Shown in pieces: positions 3,835-60,831 of a stretch of DNA of 64,000 nucleotides. The first letter of the stretch is position 1, and each line of letters opens with the position of its first letter. The position numbers and the translations under genes were made by a program. A model generated the notes under the pieces. It did no database searches. It was not told the DNA's origin and worked only from the letters and a program-made list of their open reading frames with translations. This DNA comes from Escherichia phage vB_EcoM-172859UKE1: the sequence record MZ234025.1; one strand, written 5' to 3'.

Positions 3835-4943
3835 TAGAAAGTCCCCGCATAAAGTGAAGAACGGTTTAATGTAATAATTTCTCGCATTGTTATCTCTAAC
3901 GTAAATGTTGATGGTAAGTTAGGAGCAACAGCGAGACCATTAAATTGTCCATTTGGAGTTTTATCAAAACGTACGCTTTGAATTTGACATGGGCCAAATA
4001 CATCAGTTAACCCGTCAAATTTAGACGTGTGTCCAAAGTTTTTAACCATCCAAATTGTAGGGTTGCTTACAACTAATACATTTGTTAATGACGCAGTAAT
4101 CTTTTCAAACAATGTCTTATTTTTTACTGCATCGTCTGGTGTCATAGGCTCAATAAACGTTGAACGGTACCATTCGTCTAAATAACTTTTAATCTCTTGG
4201 GCGTATTGTGATTTACCTGTCTCACCATATGAGAAATAGTTAAAATATTGGTAAATGTTTATAATAGCCATAAGGTCTTCAGTTGAACGTGGAGTTAAAT
4301 CCCATGTAAAGACTTTAGTACGGTTCTCAGCACCGCCATACATACTACGAGAAGTCGTATAAATCTGTTCGTTATTATCAGCCATAAGCCCTTGAGTAAT
4401 AGAATCTAATGCACCAAAAACTGCAGTAGAAGCAATGTTACTTAAAACACCCGTAGCAGTACCTCCACCTTTAGTAATAAGGCTATCACCGATATCATTA
4501 AAACGATGTGAAGTTGTATCAACGTCAGATTTGGAACGTGGCAAAAGTATATTAGCAACAGGAGTTTTATTTATAGTAGATTTATTAGCTCCAGCAGGAA
4601 GCAATCCATTTGAGAATTTAGTCACTGCATCTTTCACATTATCAGTTAAATCTGATATGATACCATTAGATGAAGTCCCGGCGTATGCCGGACGTAAATT
4701 CCTGAGGGATCCTGAATCGCGTGCAGACATATTGTACGCAGTAAATAATAATCCATTCTTATAAAGGTCTGTTACCTGGAAGTCTCCTGTGGAGTCATTT
4801 CCGGCTGCTCTTCCTGTAGGAAATTGAGCAACATAAGTTTTAGTAGTTGTTTCGGTTTTAGTGCTTTGCCCAGCACTTTCTGAGACTGGTATCGCTTTAT
4901 TTAAATCCTTTGCATCTACTACTATTTCTTTTACACTAATCAT
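3834..4943 (-). CDS. 48: baseplate tail tube cap gp48
   Basis: 369 aa (T4 gp48 about 364); synteny. Confidence 0.8.
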   Translation of the reverse strand: MISVKEIVVDAKDLNKAIPVSESAGQSTKTETTTKTYVAQFPTGRAAGNDSTGDFQVTDLYKNGLLFTAYNMSARDSGSLRNLRPAYAGTSSNGIISDLTDNVKDAVTKFSNGLLPAGANKSTINKTPVANILLPRSKSDVDTTSHRFNDIGDSLITKGGGTATGVLSNIASTAVFGALDSITQGLMADNNEQIYTTSRSMYGGAENRTKVFTWDLTPRSTEDLMAIINIYQYFNYFSYGETGKSQYAQEIKSYLDEWYRSTFIEPMTPDDAVKNKTLFEKITASLTNVLVVSNPTIWMVKNFGHTSKFDGLTDVFGPCQIQSVRFDKTPNGQFNGLAVAPNLPSTFTLEITMREIITLNRSSLYAGTF

Positions 4944-4951
4944 AATAATCC

Positions 4952-6724
4952 TTAATTAACACCGGTGGCATGGAAAATTCCAGGAGCCGTTGTACTTGTT
5001 ACAGGGGTCATATTCTGGACTACGGTATTCTTTTTGACGACATTATTTGTGTTACTAATCGCCGCTACCGGTTGCTGTTGTTTAGATTCAGAAGCACGTC
5101 CTTTCTCTATTGACTGAACTTGTTTTGCTTCCGGAGATTTAGACGAAGATTCAGGCTTAACTGTTGTCTGAGCCTTTTTGGCTTCAGCCATTTTATTATT
5201 TAGCTTTTCAAATCTAGCATCTAATTCCTTTTTAACAACAGGAGTTTTATTAAGTTCAGGGTCTTTAATAAGTTTACTTAAATCAGCATAAGACTTCTCG
5301 ACGTTTTTAGCATTTTCCGGATTAGTCATATCGATTTTATCGATATAATCCTCAAATCTAACGAGTGCCGCACGAGTTTCATTAGCTTTTATATACGCCT
5401 CTTTACGCTCCTCTTCAGGTAACTCTTTTAATTTTGCCGATTCCGCAGCACGCTCATCGCTTGTACTAAACTCTTCTTTATTGTCATTACCACGAACCCA
5501 GTTAGTAACGAATGTTTTGCCACGTTGTAACATATCAAGACCTTTAGAAACGGTTCCTAATTCCCCATCGTCACGCTTCATTTGATATTTAGCGACTTTC
5601 TCTTGGTCTTCTTTCTTTAATTTGTTCCCAGTAGTTTCTTGGAATCCTTCCAAAGCACGTCCTTCTATTTCGTCCGCGGTATCACCAAAACCTATAGCAC
5701 GCAATATAGACGCGGAGAGTTTAGCCATTCCTAATTGAATTAGTTCACCTAAGTTCATTAATGCTGTTCCTACACCTTTGACAATAGCAACGGTTAAACC
5801 ACCCCAGTCTCCAGCTTCCCACAATTGTTTTATCGAGTCAATAGAAGTGAATATATCACTTAAGAATTTACCCCACTCTTTAGCTTCATCGGAGAATTTA
5901 GTAAAGTTTTCATCAAATAAATCCCAGGCAGAAGTGAACTTGTCTGTCCAATATTTGAAATGGACTATCAATAAATCAATACCGATAACAATACCAAGAA
6001 TAAGTGCGGCCATTTTTGCTGCTTCAATAGCAGCCGTTATAGTGTATTTGAAAAGCATTCCAGCAATTCTGTCTGAAATTGATATTGATTTATTAAACCC
6101 GGCTTGAACTGTTTTGGTGAGCATTGCAATTTTATCGCTCAATTTAAAGCTAATTCCGCCTTTAGAATCGGAAGTAGAATTAGCACTTTCTTGAACCGGG
6201 GCCGGGAAGAAATCTTCGTCTGGCTTATTATCAATCTTTTCAGGTGTAGGGAATGCTTTAAACAACTCATCAGAAGTTTCATTCTCAACCACTTTAACAG
6301 GTATTGCGTTCTCAATTACTTCAAGAGAGGTGCCTCCTGTATTTTGAATAGCGGTAGATGTTTGTAATTTTTGCTCTAATAATGTAGCTAATCGGTCTAA
6401 CTTAGAGCTTATTGCACTAGAAACTTCGTTTATACTTTTAGTGACTTCAGTTTGTTTTTCAATAACTTCTGCGATAAGCTCTGTGCCTTCAGCAGTATTA
6501 TCTGTCGAATTCTTTAAGTCTCCAATTGATTCAATAATTCCATTGCCTTTATCTTCTACACTTTGTGATGTGAGTTCAGACGCGGCTTGGACATCGTCTA
6601 GTTTTGATGAAATGTCATTCAATGCTTCTAATGAATCGGTAGCTGCTGTTGCAGCTACTTTTTGTGGTTTATTATCGGCAATGACCTTATTTCTACGCAT
6701 GGATTTCATTTCTTCAGGTTTCAT
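4952..6724 (-). CDS. 29: baseplate hub / tail length determinator gp29
   Basis: 590 aa, same as T4 gp29; synteny. Confidence 0.8.
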   Translation of the reverse strand: MKPEEMKSMRRNKVIADNKPQKVAATAATDSLEALNDISSKLDDVQAASELTSQSVEDKGNGIIESIGDLKNSTDNTAEGTELIAEVIEKQTEVTKSINEVSSAISSKLDRLATLLEQKLQTSTAIQNTGGTSLEVIENAIPVKVVENETSDELFKAFPTPEKIDNKPDEDFFPAPVQESANSTSDSKGGISFKLSDKIAMLTKTVQAGFNKSISISDRIAGMLFKYTITAAIEAAKMAALILGIVIGIDLLIVHFKYWTDKFTSAWDLFDENFTKFSDEAKEWGKFLSDIFTSIDSIKQLWEAGDWGGLTVAIVKGVGTALMNLGELIQLGMAKLSASILRAIGFGDTADEIEGRALEGFQETTGNKLKKEDQEKVAKYQMKRDDGELGTVSKGLDMLQRGKTFVTNWVRGNDNKEEFSTSDERAAESAKLKELPEEERKEAYIKANETRAALVRFEDYIDKIDMTNPENAKNVEKSYADLSKLIKDPELNKTPVVKKELDARFEKLNNKMAEAKKAQTTVKPESSSKSPEAKQVQSIEKGRASESKQQQPVAAISNTNNVVKKNTVVQNMTPVTSTTAPGIFHATGVN

Positions 6725-54983: not shown

Positions 54984-55577
54984 ATGAACACACTGAAGAA
55001 ACTTGTTGAATTCATCCGCACTAAACTTGGTACTGCTATGGCTAAAAATCTGACTGTCGAAGAACAGTATAACGCAGCTGCAGATAAGTTGATTACCCAA
55101 ATCAAAGAACTAAAAACGGCTTCTGTTAAATCTATTAATGAAGAAAAACGTATTCGCGAACTTGTTAATGAAAAGAACAAACAAGCCGCTTCTAAGGAAC
55201 GTGAAATTCGTAAGCTCTTGGCTGAAGGACAAGATGTTACCATGCATGCTAAGCTTGGTCTTCTGTATCGTCGAACTGCCGAACAACTTAATACAAAAGC
55301 TGACGGGTATGCCGCTATGCGAATTGAAATTGCTCGTAAGGTGGTTGAACTTGATGATGCTCGTCAGAATCTGGCAATCAAACTCGAATACATTCGTGAA
55401 ACTCGAGCAGCCAACGCCCTTGGTATCTCTACGGCTGATGATGTAATTGAAATCGCTGCACTGACTAAGGTTGATATCGAAGACACTCTGACTCGTGTTG
55501 AAACGTTCAATGGCACTCCAGCCGGCGTCGAAACCACTTCTGCTGATGTACAAGAATATATTAACTCTTTGAAATAA
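54984..55577 (+). CDS. coiled-coil protein (197 aa), first gene of an early operon of unknowns
   Basis: ATG 54984 with GAAAGG SD; Lys/Glu/Ala-rich heptad-like composition. Confidence 0.55.
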
Positions 55578-55586
55578 AATAATACG

Positions 55587-55608
55587 GAGGACTCCGGTCC
55601 TCCTTTTG
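55587..55608 (+). terminator. hairpin (GGAGGAC-TCCG-GTCCTCC) + TTTT, probably an attenuating terminator
   Basis: Perfect 7-bp stem followed by short T-run; next gene starts 19 nt later. Confidence 0.45.
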
Positions 55609-55626: not shown

Positions 55627-56229
55627 ATGCGAAACCAAAATAATGATATTGACTCAATGTTCGAAGAGTTCCGAGATAAGGTAAATCCACCTACGTCTTT
55701 AGTTGATTCATTACGATATGTTGCAACCGGACGTAAATGGTACTGGTCGTCTTCTTATGAGACTACTGAGAAAACGGCTAGCCATAGCAGAAAATCTTTA
55801 TTAGCCCCAGGTATTATGATTCATGATATCGGAGCTATTGCTAAACTAGTTGCAGACCATGATATTAGATTCACTGATTTCGTTGCTCCTACATGGTCTG
55901 TTTGTTGTTTAAACACTGAATTGGAATATATCAGCGAACGCTCTGAAGATTATTATGGTTTTAGAGATAAGCTTCTGAGGTCTAATATGTTTTATATCGA
56001 TACAGAAGTTCTAGTCGATAATAAAAAATATTACTTTACGTTAATCATCGATTCTGAAACTATGTATGAAGGCAAGCCTTTGCTTAAAAGAGTTGATGCT
56101 TTAAGTGCTATTGATGCGCTTTATGAAACTATGGTTGTTAGTCCTAATTTCACTAACAATTTAATCCTTGAGCAATTTATTATGGAATGTAGAGAATATG
56201 TCAAAGCCAACCCTGTACATGCCAATTAA
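55627..56229 (+). CDS. hypothetical protein (200 aa) with junction motif FIMECR near the C-terminus
   Basis: ATG 55627 with AAAGGAG SD. Confidence 0.55.
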   Translation: MRNQNNDIDSMFEEFRDKVNPPTSLVDSLRYVATGRKWYWSSSYETTEKTASHSRKSLLAPGIMIHDIGAIAKLVADHDIRFTDFVAPTWSVCCLNTELEYISERSEDYYGFRDKLLRSNMFYIDTEVLVDNKKYYFTLIIDSETMYEGKPLLKRVDALSAIDALYETMVVSPNFTNNLILEQFIMECREYVKANPVHAN

Positions 56230-56593
56230 GCCCTGGGCGTATGAATACAAGCGTAAATTAATCCCAAACGAAGTACTATTTGGCCCTATTTTAGCTTTAG
56301 CATTTTTAATCTTTATGATTGTAGGAGCTGTTTTAGATTCTAGTGAAGTTATATCGTCTGATGCAGTGTTTTTACTTATTATAGCCGGGTCGTTTATTGT
56401 GCCATTTTTATTAATGCCTATTAACTGGGTGGGATATTGGTACCAAGGCCGTCATCACAGAGCTCGAGTTCGTGAATGGAAAGTTCAGTGCGCAAAAGCC
56501 AAAGCTCAGTATGATGAAGCTGTTAAAAAGTATGAATATGAAGAAGCTATGGAATTCGTTAAGGAAATAAGATGCAAAAGCCTCAACTCTTAA
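56198..56593 (+). CDS. small 2-TM membrane protein (131 aa), C-terminal ..EFVKEIRCK..
   Basis: ATG 56198 (track starts at TTG 56168); two hydrophobic helices; overlaps upstream gene by 32 nt. Confidence 0.5.
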   Translation: MSKPTLYMPIKPWAYEYKRKLIPNEVLFGPILALAFLIFMIVGAVLDSSEVISSDAVFLLIIAGSFIVPFLLMPINWVGYWYQGRHHRARVREWKVQCAKAKAQYDEAVKKYEYEEAMEFVKEIRCKSLNS

Positions 56594-56931
56594 CCGTATG
56601 GCCTTCTCTTGGTGAGAACATTCTAATTTTTATTATGAGTATTGGCATGGGATTTGCCTTTGGATTAGTTGGATTTCTTATTGACGGCGTTGTGTTAGGA
56701 TTTATAGGGAACACTGGTGGATTCACAGACCAATGGCAGGACTTACGATATACTCAAGCCTTTGCATCAATCGCATCCTTTTGTACAGTAGTCTATTTTT
56801 ACTACGATTTTATAAACCATAACAAGAAAAATAAAAAGGTTTACGCTTCTCAAATGATTAGTTATAATGAACTCCTAGCTAGACGTGAAAATGAAACAAT
56901 CGAAAACTTTATTAAGGAATGTAGAAAATGA
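56572..56931 (+). CDS. small multi-TM membrane protein (119 aa), C-terminal ..ENFIKECRK
   Basis: ATG directly after the upstream junction motif. Confidence 0.5.
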   Translation: MQKPQLLTVWPSLGENILIFIMSIGMGFAFGLVGFLIDGVVLGFIGNTGGFTDQWQDLRYTQAFASIASFCTVVYFYYDFINHNKKNKKVYASQMISYNELLARRENETIENFIKECRK

Positions 56932-57233
56932 GTAAGATTATTGAAATTAAAGTACCAGAGTTTAATGATGCCAAATCCGCTTCAGATGCAATTTATAAAC
57001 TTCTGAATCAAGCTGAACGTATCGAAGAAGAAGCAACAAAGATCGCAGACCAATATGCCGTATCATTTTCTGTAGGTGATTATGGTAGCGGTCGTACTTA
57101 TTATCCTAAGGGTGAAATCGTATCCCAGTGGATGAAAGATGAAATTGAAAATAATGGTGGCGATGTTAAGCGTGAAGGTAATGGTTACGTTATTACTGAA
57201 GGTGCTTGGGTTTCGTCTTCTGCGTTGTGCTAA
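56928..57233 (+). CDS. paralog A of tandem family ending GAWVSSSALC (101 aa)
   Basis: ATGA-coupled; shares C-terminal G-x-W-V-x-S-S-x-x-C with the next two genes. Confidence 0.55.
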   Translation: MSKIIEIKVPEFNDAKSASDAIYKLLNQAERIEEEATKIADQYAVSFSVGDYGSGRTYYPKGEIVSQWMKDEIENNGGDVKREGNGYVITEGAWVSSSALC

Positions 57234-57242
57234 GGAATCATT

Positions 57243-57515
57243 ATGTCTAAAGAACAAACCGAACTGGCTGAAGCTGTAGCAAAAATCTATGCAGCTATTG
57301 AGGCTGCCAAAGAAATTGCTGATAAACAAAACACAACATTCGACTTGTATCCAGCTTATGGTATGGGTGGAACCTATCATTCACCCGGACATCTTAAAGC
57401 CGATCTTGAACGTTGTACAAAAAACGGTTATGCTGAATGGGCTGATGTTTATCAATACGACTACAACCTGAGCCTTGAAGATGGTGGTTGGGTTGCATCT
57501 TCACACACTTGCTAA
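57243..57515 (+). CDS. paralog B of tandem family ending GGWVASSHTC (90 aa)
   Basis: SD TAAGGAA; conserved junction TGC-TAA-GGAA. Confidence 0.55.
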   Translation: MSKEQTELAEAVAKIYAAIEAAKEIADKQNTTFDLYPAYGMGGTYHSPGHLKADLERCTKNGYAEWADVYQYDYNLSLEDGGWVASSHTC

Positions 57516-57524
57516 GGAAACCAT

Positions 57525-57722
57525 ATGTCTCGTGAATTAGATTGTGCTGTACGTACCGCGGTAGCTGCTCTAGAAAACCTGTTCCAAATTGCAACAGAAG
57601 AACGCGAAGAAGTTACATTATGGATTGAAGATAACGCAGGTCTGAATCTCCAGGACGCGATCTCATTATCTAATAATAGCATTACTGTTCAAGGCTGGGT
57701 ATCGTCTAGTTATTCTTGCTAA
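57525..57722 (+). CDS. paralog C of tandem family ending QGWVSSSYSC (65 aa)
   Basis: SD AAGGAAA; conserved junction TGC-TAA-GGAA. Confidence 0.55.
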   Translation: MSRELDCAVRTAVAALENLFQIATEEREEVTLWIEDNAGLNLQDAISLSNNSITVQGWVSSSYSC

Positions 57723-57726
57723 AACA

Positions 57727-57756
57727 GTTTACAATAAGATAGGACTATGTTATAGT
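57727..57756 (+). promoter_or_regulatory. T4-type early promoter cassette with GGACTA/TAGTCC inverted repeat
   Basis: GTTTAC 57727-57732, TATAGT 57751-57756. Confidence 0.6.
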
Positions 57757-57784
57757 AGTCCTATCAAATTAAATGGAGTCCGCA

Positions 57785-58024
57785 ATGATTTATTACGAAA
57801 GTATCGGAACCAAAGTGATTGGTAAAACCATTACTCGTGAAAAGTTTGCAAAGATATTCGATATGCGTTATAAAAAATCTGAACACAAAGGCATCCGATT
57901 CGAAGATGCGCACTGTACAATTTGCCCTTATAATGAAGACATAAATGGTACAATCGTTCCATTGGTAGAGGCTTCACATGATGACCTCTGGGATGAATAT
58001 AATATCGCATGTCGTGAAATTTAA
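57785..58024 (+). CDS. hypothetical protein (79 aa)
   Basis: ATG 57785 with GGAG 6 nt upstream. Confidence 0.5.
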   Translation: MIYYESIGTKVIGKTITREKFAKIFDMRYKKSEHKGIRFEDAHCTICPYNEDINGTIVPLVEASHDDLWDEYNIACREI

Positions 58025-58052
58025 GTTAATGAATTAATCCGAGGAAAATATT

Positions 58053-59009
58053 ATGATGTTAGTTATTGGTTCTCGTGCACTTCACTATCATGGTCTTATT
58101 GATTCTAGCGCTATCAAAAATAGTGATTGGGACTTTATTGCGGACCAAGGTTCTTGGAATGCATTCAAAAATCAAATGATGGGTGTATATGTTCACCAAG
58201 ATAACCCTGATGTCCAAGTTTTCAAATGCTTCCATAATGGACGCGAAACTCATTTTGAAGCATATATTGTTCCGGCGATCACTAATGTCCGTGAATTAGT
58301 CGGTGAACTCACTCCTGAAGATTTCACGTCTTCTTATGACCTTTTAAAATACGCCAAGAAAAATTTGACTAAAGACCGTTTGACCGGGTTTTACTGGGCA
58401 ACTCCTGAGATATGTCTTGCAATTAAAATGTCTCATCGTTTCAAGAAAAATAATCCATTCTTTTTAAAGACTATGAACCATATTCAGTATCTTCGCGGTA
58501 AAGGTGTTACACTGAACGATGAACTTACTGAAATTATGCTGAAACGCCAGAAAGAAACTTTGAACTATGCTCACCCGGTTCTTGACACTTCTAAAAGTGC
58601 GTTCTTTAAAGATGACATCTATACATATGACCATGATACTATTCATGAAGCCATTGCACTAACTGACCAGCCTGCTTATAAGTTTTATATGAAAGAAGGC
58701 TCAGAAGTTATGACATCACGCGAGAAGTTCGAATCATTACCAGAAATGGTTAAATTAGCCGGTGTATATGAAGAAGCTTGTGTATTAGCTCTTGAACGTT
58801 CACAGATTCCTAACGACTTTAAAATCCATCCGAGTGATAGTTTTATGATGGCCCTTGAAAAGGTCTGTACATCAATCACATCAGGATGGTTCCGTGAGTT
58901 CGCTTGGGAAAATTATAGCAAAGTAGTAAGTATGTACCAAAGCTTAGGACATGACGATTACGTCAAGCGTTTCAAACAAAACTTTCATATGGTAAAACCT
59001 TTCAAATAA
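58053..59009 (+). CDS. hypothetical 318-aa protein; N-terminus has a GS...DxD pattern weakly reminiscent of Pol-beta-type nucleotidyltransferases
   Basis: ATG with GAGGAAAA SD; VIGSRALHYHGLIDSSAIKNSDWDFIAD; functional call is inference only. Confidence 0.55.
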   Translation: MMLVIGSRALHYHGLIDSSAIKNSDWDFIADQGSWNAFKNQMMGVYVHQDNPDVQVFKCFHNGRETHFEAYIVPAITNVRELVGELTPEDFTSSYDLLKYAKKNLTKDRLTGFYWATPEICLAIKMSHRFKKNNPFFLKTMNHIQYLRGKGVTLNDELTEIMLKRQKETLNYAHPVLDTSKSAFFKDDIYTYDHDTIHEAIALTDQPAYKFYMKEGSEVMTSREKFESLPEMVKLAGVYEEACVLALERSQIPNDFKIHPSDSFMMALEKVCTSITSGWFREFAWENYSKVVSMYQSLGHDDYVKRFKQNFHMVKPFK

Positions 59010-59021
59010 TTTCACAAAACA

Positions 59022-59051
59022 GTTTACAAGGTCTGTAGTTGTTGATACTAT
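59022..59051 (+). promoter_or_regulatory. T4-type early promoter cassette
   Basis: AAAACAGTTTACA, TACTAT 59046-59051. Confidence 0.6.
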
Positions 59052-59055
59052 AGAC

Positions 59056-59092
59056 CTATCAAAACAAATGAGTGAATGGAGATATAAAAATG
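59056..59092 (+). repeat. conserved 5'UTR cassette copy (CTATCAAAACAAATGAGTGAATGGAGATATAAAAATG)
   Basis: Nearly identical to 50953..50988. Confidence 0.7.
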
Positions 59093-59290
59093 ACTACTTT
59101 GAATAAACGTTTCGGTAAAGCTAAACCTGGTTGTGCAGCAGAACGTCGTTATGTTTTCGCTCAGTTAGAAGATGTAGAGTATCAGATTAATCAAGTTCAC
59201 ATTACTGGTATCGAGCCTATGTGTGGCCTTGAAGCTCTTCGTGAAGTTCGTGATGGGTATCGTCGTGACATCGAAGAAATGTCAAAATAA
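59090..59290 (+). CDS. hypothetical small protein (66 aa)
   Basis: ATG 59090; track ORF N-extended. Confidence 0.5.
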   Translation: MTTLNKRFGKAKPGCAAERRYVFAQLEDVEYQINQVHITGIEPMCGLEALREVRDGYRRDIEEMSK

Positions 59291-59320
59291 GTGTACAAAC
59301 TGATAGGGCTATGTTATAGT
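59291..59320 (+). promoter_or_regulatory. early promoter cassette (variant -35 GTGTAC) with inverted repeat
   Basis: GTGTAC 59291-59296, TATAGT 59315-59320. Confidence 0.5.
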
Positions 59321-59346
59321 AGTCCTATCAACTTGAGGAGAATATT

Positions 59347-59652
59347 ATGAAATTAACAGAAACCAACCGAATCGGTCTTTTTACAATATTTGCATCGCTT
59401 TTTTACGCAGCTCTTTCTGTTGCAGTATTACAAAAGGCTTACGATATGGATGGTGTTCCTGGTTGTATATTTTTATCACCGTTTTTATTATTCGTCGGAG
59501 CTTTGATATTATATGCCACGTCCGGTTTAGACCATAATGTCTGGGTCAATTATAAACGTAAATTGTCCGAAGAAGAACACGCAGAAGCTCGTAAAAAAGC
59601 TATTGAATCTACCAATCTAGAAAATTTCATTAAAGAATGTCGAGGAAAATAA
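59347..59652 (+). CDS. small 2-TM membrane protein (101 aa), C-terminal ..ENFIKECRGK
   Basis: SD GAGGAG; hydrophobic helices. Confidence 0.55.
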   Translation: MKLTETNRIGLFTIFASLFYAALSVAVLQKAYDMDGVPGCIFLSPFLLFVGALILYATSGLDHNVWVNYKRKLSEEEHAEARKKAIESTNLENFIKECRGK

Positions 59653-59653
59653 T

Positions 59654-60340
59654 ATGAATAGTTCTAAAGTGTTTAATAGTCAAGCTCGTGCAGTAGGTGG
59701 TTTTGCCGGCGGTATTTCTAATGATAAAATCAAGAACGAGCCTATGTTCTTCAACTGTAGTTTAGAATTTGCTTATAATAACGGCGGTCCTATTACTCGC
59801 TCTTTCATTATGAACTTGCCGGATGATTGGAACACCGACCAGGTTGTATTTGATTCACGAGTCCACATGCTGATGCCTGGTTGGTATCCTGCAATCCCAG
59901 GCTATCACCATGATGACGTACCACGCCCAGATATTCCAGTTGGTCAACACTTTATTACTGCAGGACAACCTGACTATGACAACCCTCGTTACCATTCTGA
60001 ACATATTCTTGGTCTTGTTAACGCTGATGTGTGTCCTACTCATTTTGCAACAGGAACTGCGGAGTTCAGTCAGATTCCTTATGGCGAACTTATCTATCGC
60101 CAGTGGCACAAAGAAGTCCTCGAAAAAATTGAAAAAGGTGAACTAGAGAAATGGGAAGCTCCAGATCGTACTCTTCTTCAGTTTGATTGGCAAACATGGC
60201 ACACTGGTTCTCGTGCAATTAGTAACGGATGGCGTTGGTTCGGACGTGTATCTCGTAATACAGACCGAGTTAAAAAGATTACCAATGAAATTCGTGTCAA
60301 TGCTCAAGTTTATCTGGAATTCCCTATGGAAGGCTGGTAA
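59654..60340 (+). CDS. hypothetical protein (228 aa), His/Asp-rich
   Basis: Starts 1 nt after previous stop, directly after the junction motif. Confidence 0.55.
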   Translation: MNSSKVFNSQARAVGGFAGGISNDKIKNEPMFFNCSLEFAYNNGGPITRSFIMNLPDDWNTDQVVFDSRVHMLMPGWYPAIPGYHHDDVPRPDIPVGQHFITAGQPDYDNPRYHSEHILGLVNADVCPTHFATGTAEFSQIPYGELIYRQWHKEVLEKIEKGELEKWEAPDRTLLQFDWQTWHTGSRAISNGWRWFGRVSRNTDRVKKITNEIRVNAQVYLEFPMEGW

Positions 60341-60831
60341 TGATACATAAAATTCACTGGGCAAACATGGACGATGACGACGAAGGTACTTCATATTATT
60401 CTATAGATTGGACAGGATGTCCATCCTACTTAGTGAAACGTCATTGTCAAGCATTTAAAATCGACCAGCCAGCAGGTATTATTGTGAACAGATACATTAA
60501 CGGATATCAACCTATCGATGAAGTAATACGAACAACTCAAGCTGAGCTTGAAAAGTTTTTCAATAAGTGCCAATGGATAACAGGATGGATTATATTTGTA
60601 CCGTCAGTGTGGTTTTTTAGTACTAAGGTGAGTTCTTTCGGTTTTGTTGATATTATTGCTATCTTATTAGCATCTAGTATCATAAGTGTTGTTGGTGGCA
60701 TCATTGGCGGCGGTACCGCCGCCATCATTATTAATCTTATTAAAAGTAGTTTACAAGAACATAAAGACAAGATAAAAGCCAAGAATAATGAAGTTGAACG
60801 TTTTATTACCGAATGCAGGAATTTGAGATGA
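60340..60831 (+). CDS. membrane protein (163 aa): soluble N-domain ending ..LEKFFNKCQ fused to TM segment, C-terminal ..ERFITECRNLR
   Basis: TAATG-coupled; internal and terminal copies of the junction motif. Confidence 0.55.
   Translation: MIHKIHWANMDDDDEGTSYYSIDWTGCPSYLVKRHCQAFKIDQPAGIIVNRYINGYQPIDEVIRTTQAELEKFFNKCQWITGWIIFVPSVWFFSTKVSSFGFVDIIAILLASSIISVVGGIIGGGTAAIIINLIKSSLQEHKDKIKAKNNEVERFITECRNLR

Follow-up and report, generated by a model that had tools for sequence, protein, structure and literature searches.

Bacteriophage T4 is the best-studied large phage, and yet its genes e.2 to e.6 have been without an assigned function for decades. In packed phage operons, the Shine-Dalgarno (SD) sequence of a gene can lie within the 3' end of the upstream gene, with translational coupling between the two, and tight or overlapping junctions with SD sequences inside the upstream codons are ordinary in T4-type genomes. 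Short C-terminal tails for docking or membrane targeting are likewise known, e.g., the acidic C-terminal tip of SSB and the C-terminal amphipathic helix of MinD. Promoter-early stem-loop (PeSL) elements, which require a promoter plus a stem-loop (PMC2839356), have been proposed as homologous-recombination sites for gene gain and loss in T4-type phages (Arbiol et al. 2010, PMC2839356; Comeau et al. 2014, PMC4122927). The current study concerns 64 kb of Escherichia phage vB_EcoM-172859UKE1 (sequence record MZ234025.1; hereafter the window), a T4-type phage of the RB69-like genus Mosigvirus with 95-98% identity to such phages and Shigella phage SSE1 as its best match. Five open reading frames (ORFs) located here share a C-terminal tail, and four of them are by synteny and sequence the orthologues of T4 e.5, e.4, e.3, and e.2 (GenBank L13089, "msp4-msp7"; Pfam PF26876, PF26873, and PF26896). 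The T4 genes carry the same tail, but their annotation does not go beyond hypothetical or predicted membrane proteins, and they are placed in separate families.

The observation from which an initial annotation of the locus had started is real and far beyond chance, and its reading was half right. All five ORFs that it had listed were found in place together with their tails; four of them contain two hydrophobic helices each, in line with their description as small membrane proteins, and no transmembrane (TM) segment was predicted for the fifth, e.5. The strict form of the motif, E.F[IV].ECR, has four matches in the six-frame translation of the window compared with 0.0017 expected and 0 in 300 shuffles, and all four are located on the + strand, each at most 11 residues from a stop. 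A hidden Markov model (HMM) of the tail, built exclusively from the tails of other phages, ranked the five ORFs on top with 21.1, 20.6, 18.8, 16.7, and 12.3 bits, while the next-best ORF of the window reached 5.0 bits. The tail of ORF 56198 (e.4) is degenerate but a true member, because it scored 12.3 bits against the 5.0 bits of the best other ORF. What is truly invariant is Φ-x-x-F-[I/V]-x-x-C-R with a few mostly basic residues after it, as in the tail peptide STNLENFIKECRGK. The four strict copies (Table 1) all lie in the same absolute reading frame (frame 0), a coincidence with a chance of about 1 in 27 for which no reason was found.

Conservation of the tail is a matter of amino acids. 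Over 81 distinct tails, Phe is present in 80 (TTT 58, TTC 22), Ile or Val in all 81, encoded by seven different codons, Cys in 73 (TGT 37, TGC 36), and Arg in 75 (AGA 22, CGT 19, AGG 18, CGA 8, CGC 5, CGG 3). Position -3 is hydrophobic, both x positions and the Glu that had been included in the originally noted motif vary, and between 0 and 13 residues follow the Arg. Amino-acid conservation combined with free synonymous variation at the F, I/V, C, and R codons is the pattern of a docking element or short linear motif, and it indicates selection on the peptide, because the synonymous codons vary freely and Arg switches between the AGR and CGN boxes. The tail is moreover the best-conserved 10-column stretch in the e.3 and e.5 alignments of five genera, and it stays while the protein bodies have diverged past BLAST recognition between genera.

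The bodies that carry this tail are of unrelated architecture, with 36 soluble and 75 membrane carriers, and the motif is located at or near the C terminus. An hhalign comparison identifies e.3 and e.4 as paralogues (93% probability over 90 columns, E 3e-7; 52% once the tail is taken away), and their N termini are alike (M-x-K/R-P-x-L). Neither e.2 nor e.5 matches the other carriers over more than 10-26 tail columns, and the probability falls below 3% with the tail removed, so that homology outside the motif does not extend across the carriers. Similarity to the C-terminal half of e.2 is seen in ORF 59347 and in gp135 of phage Q7622, and a soluble family of about 95 amino acids (aa) also carries the tail in other genera. 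Only unnamed families are available in PHROGs for the five proteins, which are filed in separate PHROGs and separate precomputed Pfam entries. Searches of Pfam, NCBIfam, PADLOC, and PDB sequences with the five proteins and e.6 gave nothing above threshold, and literature searches on e.2 to e.6 yielded nothing usable and no description of the shared tail, which appears to be undescribed so far in e.2 to e.5 and their relatives. The initial annotation had made its claim depend on conservation of the motif in related phages and on the carriers not being a single well-characterized family; both were found to be the case.

The gene order of the locus is that of T4, i.e., e.6, e.5, e.4, e.3, (e.2), nudE, e, and denV on one strand, and the statement that the motif could not be recognized from T4 proteins is therefore superseded, since the ORFs are T4 e.5, e.4, e.3, and e.2 with the same tail there. 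The e.5 product is 47% identical to its T4 counterpart over 95% of its length (tblastn), e.4 aligns end to end with T4 e.4, and e.3 shows 35-39% identity to Tequatrovirus e.3 over 100% of its length. The N-terminal domain of e.2 is 29-34% identical to the T4 counterpart, and the protein can be aligned over its full length with an intact Tequatrovirus e.2 from a public assembly (P0019) as well as with orthologues of three further genera. Here, e.3 and e.2 are set apart by a 3.4-kb block of extra genes that is absent from T4, and one additional ORF is present between e.2 and nudE. The fifth tailed gene, ORF 59347, sits within the 3.4-kb block and has no counterpart at the same position in T4, SP18, IME08, or Q7622; other ORFs occupy this place in SP18, IME08, and Q7622. 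It weakly matches the C-terminal half of the e.2 family (phrog_2203, E 5e-4; pairwise z = 5.0 versus the e.2 C-terminal half).

Table 1. Tail-bearing genes and further features of the e.6-denV locus (positions in the window)
Feature	Position	Strand	Description
e.6 orthologue	54984-55577	+	197 aa, soluble, highly conserved, directly upstream of the tailed genes
Terminator-like hairpin between e.6 and the first tailed gene	55586-55603	+	GGAGGACTCCGGTCCTCC, then T run
e.5 orthologue	55627-56229	+	200 aa, soluble, ends in EQFIMECREYVKANPVHAN; phrog_2607; motif EQFIMECR at 56170-56193, 11 further residues overlap the e.4 start
e.4 orthologue	56198-56593	+	131 aa, 2 TM, ends in MEFVKEIRCKSLNS; phrog_2604; degenerate tail MEFVKEIRCK, F..R at 56555-56572, Cys displaced two positions
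e.3 orthologue	56572-56931	+	119 aa, 2 TM, ends in ENFIKECRK; motif ENFIKECR at 56902-56925
10/12 promoter match	56840-56868		Ordinary, upstream of the e.3 tail
Three small soluble paralogues	56928-57233, 57243-57515, 57525-57722		End in WVSSSALC, WVASSHTC, and WVSSSYSC
PeSL-like early promoter with stem-loop	57728-57765	+	TTTACA-17-TATAGT plus TG extension overlapping a 10-bp stem
DUF7277+DUF7275 protein	58053-59009		318 aa, conserved, in the inserted block
Similar PeSL-like elements	59023-59060 and 59292-59335		In the block separating e.3 from e.2, absent from T4
Extra paralogue (ORF 59347)	59347-59652	+	101 aa, 2-TM hairpin plus tail, ends in ENFIKECRGK; motif ENFIKECR at 59620-59643; phrog_9798
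"RB69 ORF132c" protein	59654-60340		228 aa, phrog_1843, inside the inserted block
e.2 orthologue, full length	60340-60831	+	163 aa, soluble N-domain, two TM helices, and tail, ends in ERFITECRNLR; motif ERFITECR at 60796-60819; phrog_2203
"Internal copy" in e.2	60541-60573	+	AELEKFFNKCQ; letters present, no motif copy
Palindrome	60705-60724		Perfect, 20 nt, TGGCGGCGGTACCGCCGCCA
ORF between e.2 and nudE		+	78 aa
nudE	61054	+	
Lysozyme gene e	61535	+	
denV	62360	+	

The tails of T4 read EKFVKECREY in e.5, MKFVKESRCK in e.4, and KEFVIDCRKIK in e.3, the first two followed by further residues. A fourth tail, NNFITECRKLK, is encoded in an unannotated frame just upstream of nudE, and since the intact 162-aa Tequatrovirus e.2 (P0019) ends in exactly this peptide, the 102-aa e.2 of the T4 reference is a frameshifted version. 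As read from its sequence, T4 e.2 is a frameshifted gene with a preserved tail-coding end. In NC_000866 (locus record 4476-4961, minus strand), the remainder of e.2 is found in two other frames, the last of which (QQKIFDEKKYAQNLNNFITECRKLK at its end) is unannotated and overlaps the nudE start.

Beyond T4, the tail is present on syntenic and additional genes of Dhakavirus IME08, Gaprivervirus SP18, and Kanagawavirus Q7622. A wider search was anchored on e.6 and covered 34 IMG/VR loci with e.6 identities of 100-55%, for which a tail-profile cutoff of 8 bits was used. The 33 further loci contain 115 tail matches, 2 to 4 per locus. They are without exception C-terminal and on the coding strand, and just one of them is not located downstream of e.6. 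Even in more distant e.6-bearing phages the ORF right after e.6 has F-[IV]-x-x-C at or near its end, e.g., in the Aeromonas phages SW69-9 (LFVDYCRRTASKK) and Aszh-1 (SFINYCI and SFVDYCV), and the Pseudotevenvirus example, Cronobacter phage leB, has KFIHSCKK 24 residues before the end. Tail carriers are early proteins confined to the e.6-nudE cluster and are distributed over at least eight genera of Straboviridae, six of them Tevenvirinae. An exhaustive search with the profile among 1.84 billion representative proteins yielded 11 matches, all from the same phage families and one of them repetitive junk, and thus no evidence of the tail outside T4-like phages; word-indexed homologue searches gave only near-identical clusters or fragments. 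Within T4, where 63-78 kb and positions 1-50000 were covered, the tail profile had zero matches at positions 1-50000.

Decayed or chimeric clusters were seen in public assemblies (P0018, P0017, and P0013; L011, 10100-10760). In P0018, the N terminus of e.4 is joined to the C-terminal half of e.2 within TM1 and e.3 is lost, P0017 has an e.4 without TM helices, and an e.3/e.4 hybrid was also found. The Mosigvirus L011 has lost the e.3 body but has kept its last approximately 30 codons. The genes of the tailed cluster are evidently dispensable and subject to fast turnover.

Which residues of the junction motif come from the protein and which come from the ribosome-binding site can be told apart, so that the locus is a clean example of dual coding and a useful caution for motif hunting in compact genomes. 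The initial annotation had placed the motif at gene junctions, and indeed the next ATG is located -1, +2, +4, +8, and +10 nucleotides (nt) past the Arg codon at the five junctions, while the nucleotide consensus given at that time shows between 0 and 2 mismatches to each of the four strict tails. The frequent "K-E" and the AGG/AGA codons for Arg are the SD imprint of the next gene, because the genes abut or overlap here and the last codons of one gene also carry the SD of the next; F, I/V, C, and R originate from the protein. Where the next ATG is at +1 or +2, the x-x codons read AAG GAA, GAG GAA, AAA GGA, or the like, combined with an Arg that is mostly CGN. When the ATG is at +7 to +10, x-x is unconstrained and AGG or AGA, which forms AGGA, accounts for 23 of the 28 Arg codons, Lys (AAG) being present in the 29th tail; for an ATG past +10, Arg is CGY in most cases, with the SD located further downstream. 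In the window, the SD of the ATG at 56928 (e.3 junction) is AAGGA in the K-E codons, that of the ATG at 59654 (ORF 59347) is GAGGA in the Arg-Gly codons, and that of the ATG at 60828 (e.2) consists of the Arg codon AGG plus A. The motif persists, too, at junctions where the following gene uses an SD of its own at a distance of 35-60 nt or comes after a hairpin.

The claim that the motif is both a conserved protein tail and a conserved junction or initiation-region element accordingly stands in its first part and with respect to the SD sequences within the tail codons. It does not stand for a single nucleotide element, as the SD position shifts with the distance of the ATG, synonymous sites are free, the RNA is unstructured, and the motif persists without an adjacent start. 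Folding of the five junction RNAs compared with shuffles gave z values of 0.18, 0.83, 1.41, 0.77, and -1.84 and no structure. The tail junctions thus resemble described cases of an SD within the upstream gene and of translational coupling, both in the location of the next SD in the x-x or Arg codons and in the ATGA and TAATG overlaps present here, but that arrangement explains only the purine-rich variable positions and not the invariant F, I/V, C, and R.

The tail is probably a shared cytoplasmic C-terminal amphipathic helix that serves a common docking or assembly function and is maintained at the peptide level. We arrive at this reading because an amphipathic helix is invariant on unrelated bodies, the genes are co-transcribed and coupled, and the neighboring gene is very conserved. 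By geometry, positions -3, 0, +1, and +4 fall on one helical face. In the AF2 model of e.5 the tail is helical (residues 180-194, low confidence with a pLDDT of 50), and the model of e.3 consists of two long helices and a C-terminal helix (residues 110-118, low confidence with a pLDDT of 60); both were too poor for fold searches. We infer helicity and a docking function for the tail, and a cytoplasmic location is predicted from the basic stretches after the last TM helix in combination with the positive-inside rule. The tailed proteins, co-transcribed and translationally coupled, might bundle with each other via the tail helix; alternatively, all of them might bind one conserved partner, either e.6 as the phage candidate or a host protein. 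Known docking tails such as the acidic SSB tip and the MinD-type amphipathic helix are comparable in that few C-terminal residues are invariant, independent of the fold, predicted to be helical or amphipathic, and cytoplasmic, but they show no sequence resemblance and lack the invariant Cys-Arg pair.

Several observations weigh against a docking function. Both AF2 models are of low confidence, and the docking partner is still hypothetical, with e.6 a candidate by adjacency alone that contains no Cys and has no recognizable family. With degenerate tails on e.3 and e.4 (4.8 and 5.9 bits) and a frameshifted e.2 in the T4 reference, the system is dispensable for the laboratory strain. A helix that serves packing alone would not usually have an invariant Cys-Arg, and the chemistry of this pair (metal binding, modification) may go beyond what the proposed function explains. 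Finally, tail-coding DNA has survived the loss of the gene body in two cases, T4 e.2 and L011 e.3, which a DNA- or RNA-level role for the downstream gene would also predict.

The e.6 protein is 88% identical to T4 e.6 and 64% identical to the Kanagawavirus orthologue and occurs in 1109 phage records. Its identity amounts to 55-100% within Tevenvirinae, about 50% in Aeromonas phages, and about 33% in Pseudotevenvirus. No relative was found in Pfam, NCBIfam, or PDB, and a relationship to PspA/IM30 can be dismissed (hhalign versus E. coli PspA, 0.3% probability). Some records label e.6 a "host specificity protein," the basis of which is not visible. The most conserved peptide of e.6, the N-terminal KK[LI]VEFI, has the L-x-x-F-I spacing of the tails, but it has no score with the tail profile and may be a coincidence.

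It is conceivable, although we would not expect it, that the tail is an address label by which one conserved factor, e.6 or a host protein, recognizes fast-evolving early effectors, both soluble and membrane bound, and that the Cys-Arg pair serves chemistry (metal bridging, ADP-ribosylation, or a thiol adduct) and not packing alone. If so, e.6 to e.2 would represent one functional system of T4-like phages that has been overlooked since its genes are filed as separate orphans. The common tail and the constant neighborhood of e.6 turn five orphans into one candidate system and provide an experimental handle in the form of tail peptides and the residues F, C, and R.

Three rival explanations were weighed, and they rank in the order ancestry relic, translation element, and recombination linker. 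The first and least unlikely of them is that the tail is a relic of common ancestry, i.e., that one small tailed gene underwent tandem duplication and domain replacement and that the tail is simply the slowest-evolving part without any shared partner. The paralogy of e.3 and e.4 including their similar N termini, the resemblance of ORF 59347 and Q7622 gp135 to the C-terminal half of e.2, tandem arrays of two or three tailed TM genes in other genera, and chimeras between members (the e.4/e.2 hybrid P0018) would all be in agreement with such a history. The soluble e.5-type and approximately 95-aa proteins, however, share with the TM proteins only 10-15 tail residues. A docking element is favored over a relic because four residues remain unchanged on unrelated bodies, with e.6 identities as low as 55% and in part even in Aeromonas phages, which argues for a common external constraint.

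A role in translation, in which the tail would be a nascent peptide or mRNA signal that tunes termination-reinitiation and thus the coupling to the next gene, is improbable. It draws on the next ATG being located -1 to +10 nt past the Arg codon in 60 of the 81 distinct tails, on the SD inside the motif codons, and on e.5 and e.4, whose ORFs run on for 6-11 codons and yet have the next ATG directly following the Arg codon. Tail-coding remnants have also been kept 5' of nudE in T4 and 5' of the next gene in L011, and arrest peptides are likewise conserved at the peptide level. The spacing, however, is not fixed: values between -1 and +48 nt or more were obtained for the distance from Arg to the following ATG, some motifs have no start next to them, and 0-13 codons separate the motif from its own stop. 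The motif is retained next to an independent SD 35-60 nt off or behind a hairpin, it lies 24 residues from the end in Cronobacter phage leB, no RNA structure is conserved, and tight or overlapping junctions with the SD in upstream codons are nothing out of the ordinary in T4-type genomes.

The initial annotation had proposed a recombination linker, in which the repeated tail DNA provides short homology for excision, insertion, and shuffling of gene modules, and this is the least credible of the three. One event does fit, namely, the loss of e.4 in Dhakavirus compared with Gaprivervirus. An imperfect direct repeat of 17 nt (GCTAAAGGGGTTCAAAATG and ATTAAGGAGGTTCGTAATG) flanks e.4 in SP18 and includes the SD and ATG of both e.4 and e.3, while IME08 lacks precisely e.4 and has kept one hybrid copy of the repeat, and the same state was found in six further Dhakavirus-like loci (e.6 72-73% identical, three-tail pattern of IME08). 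In addition, an exact match of 16 nt exists between the e.5 and e.4 tails of Tequatrovirus, and deletions between short direct repeats are known in T4. That match is the maximum, however, and tails of the same genome usually share only 5-8 nt. Gene conversion between tails can be discounted because synonymous codons agree no more than by chance, with 0.69 versus 0.63 expected for Phe, 0.43 versus 0.505 for Cys, and 0.63 versus 0.54 for Ile. The e.4 indel of SP18 versus IME08 coincides with tail junctions, but three other rearrangements (P0018, P0017, and L011) do not and end inside TM segments or elsewhere. ATGA start/stop overlaps, and not two motif copies, form the borders of the 3.4-kb block that separates e.3 from e.2, PeSL-type cassettes as the described sites of shuffling are present separately, and the constraint on the peptide is enough to explain the repeat.

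Like PeSL cassettes, the tails are short repeats at gene boundaries of hyperplastic regions, with the SD and the start codon of the following gene at their end. They differ in that they have no early promoter or stem-loop, are located inside coding sequence, and are conserved as amino acids. A TG-extended promoter-like site was found at 0 of the 5 tail junctions and a terminator-like hairpin at none of them, and the promoter match upstream of the e.3 tail is at background frequency. Promoter-like sites of the type TTTACA/TGTACA-17-TATAGT/TACTAT with a TG extension overlap inverted repeats such as GATAGGACTATGTTATAGTAGTCCTATC.

A class II holin might be suspected, as e.3, e.4, and ORF 59347 combine two TM helices with a charged cytoplasmic tail a few genes 5' of the lysozyme gene e, but there were zero holin matches in Pfam, NCBIfam, or PHROG, the motif is also present on soluble proteins, and the holin of T4 is a different gene (t).

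For e.2, an internal copy of the motif at the border of its soluble and TM parts had been proposed as a trace of a fusion of two modules. The peptide AELEKFFNKCQ scores -1.4 bits against the tail profile and, of the genera compared, occurs solely in Mosigvirus, being absent from e.2 of four others, and its resemblance to the motif is due to chance. The fusion is not supported either, as the N-terminal domain of e.2 never occurs as a separate tailed ORF. A scan for terminators revealed the palindrome within the second TM segment of e.2, where it encodes IGGGTAAI and is probably merely a Gly/Ala-rich coding stretch.

With respect to the inserted block, the 228-aa protein is highly conserved across genera and always encoded immediately 5' of e.2. 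The three small soluble paralogues that follow e.3 end in G-x-W-V-x-S-S-x-x-C with Cys as the last residue and have no Pfam match. This family represents a second conserved C-terminal motif of the same gene cluster, and it is also found in tandem, with 3-6 copies, in SP18 (gp141-137) and Q7622 (gp146-140), where variant ends such as FWFNSSMSC, WYPSSC, and WQSSSYSC occur.

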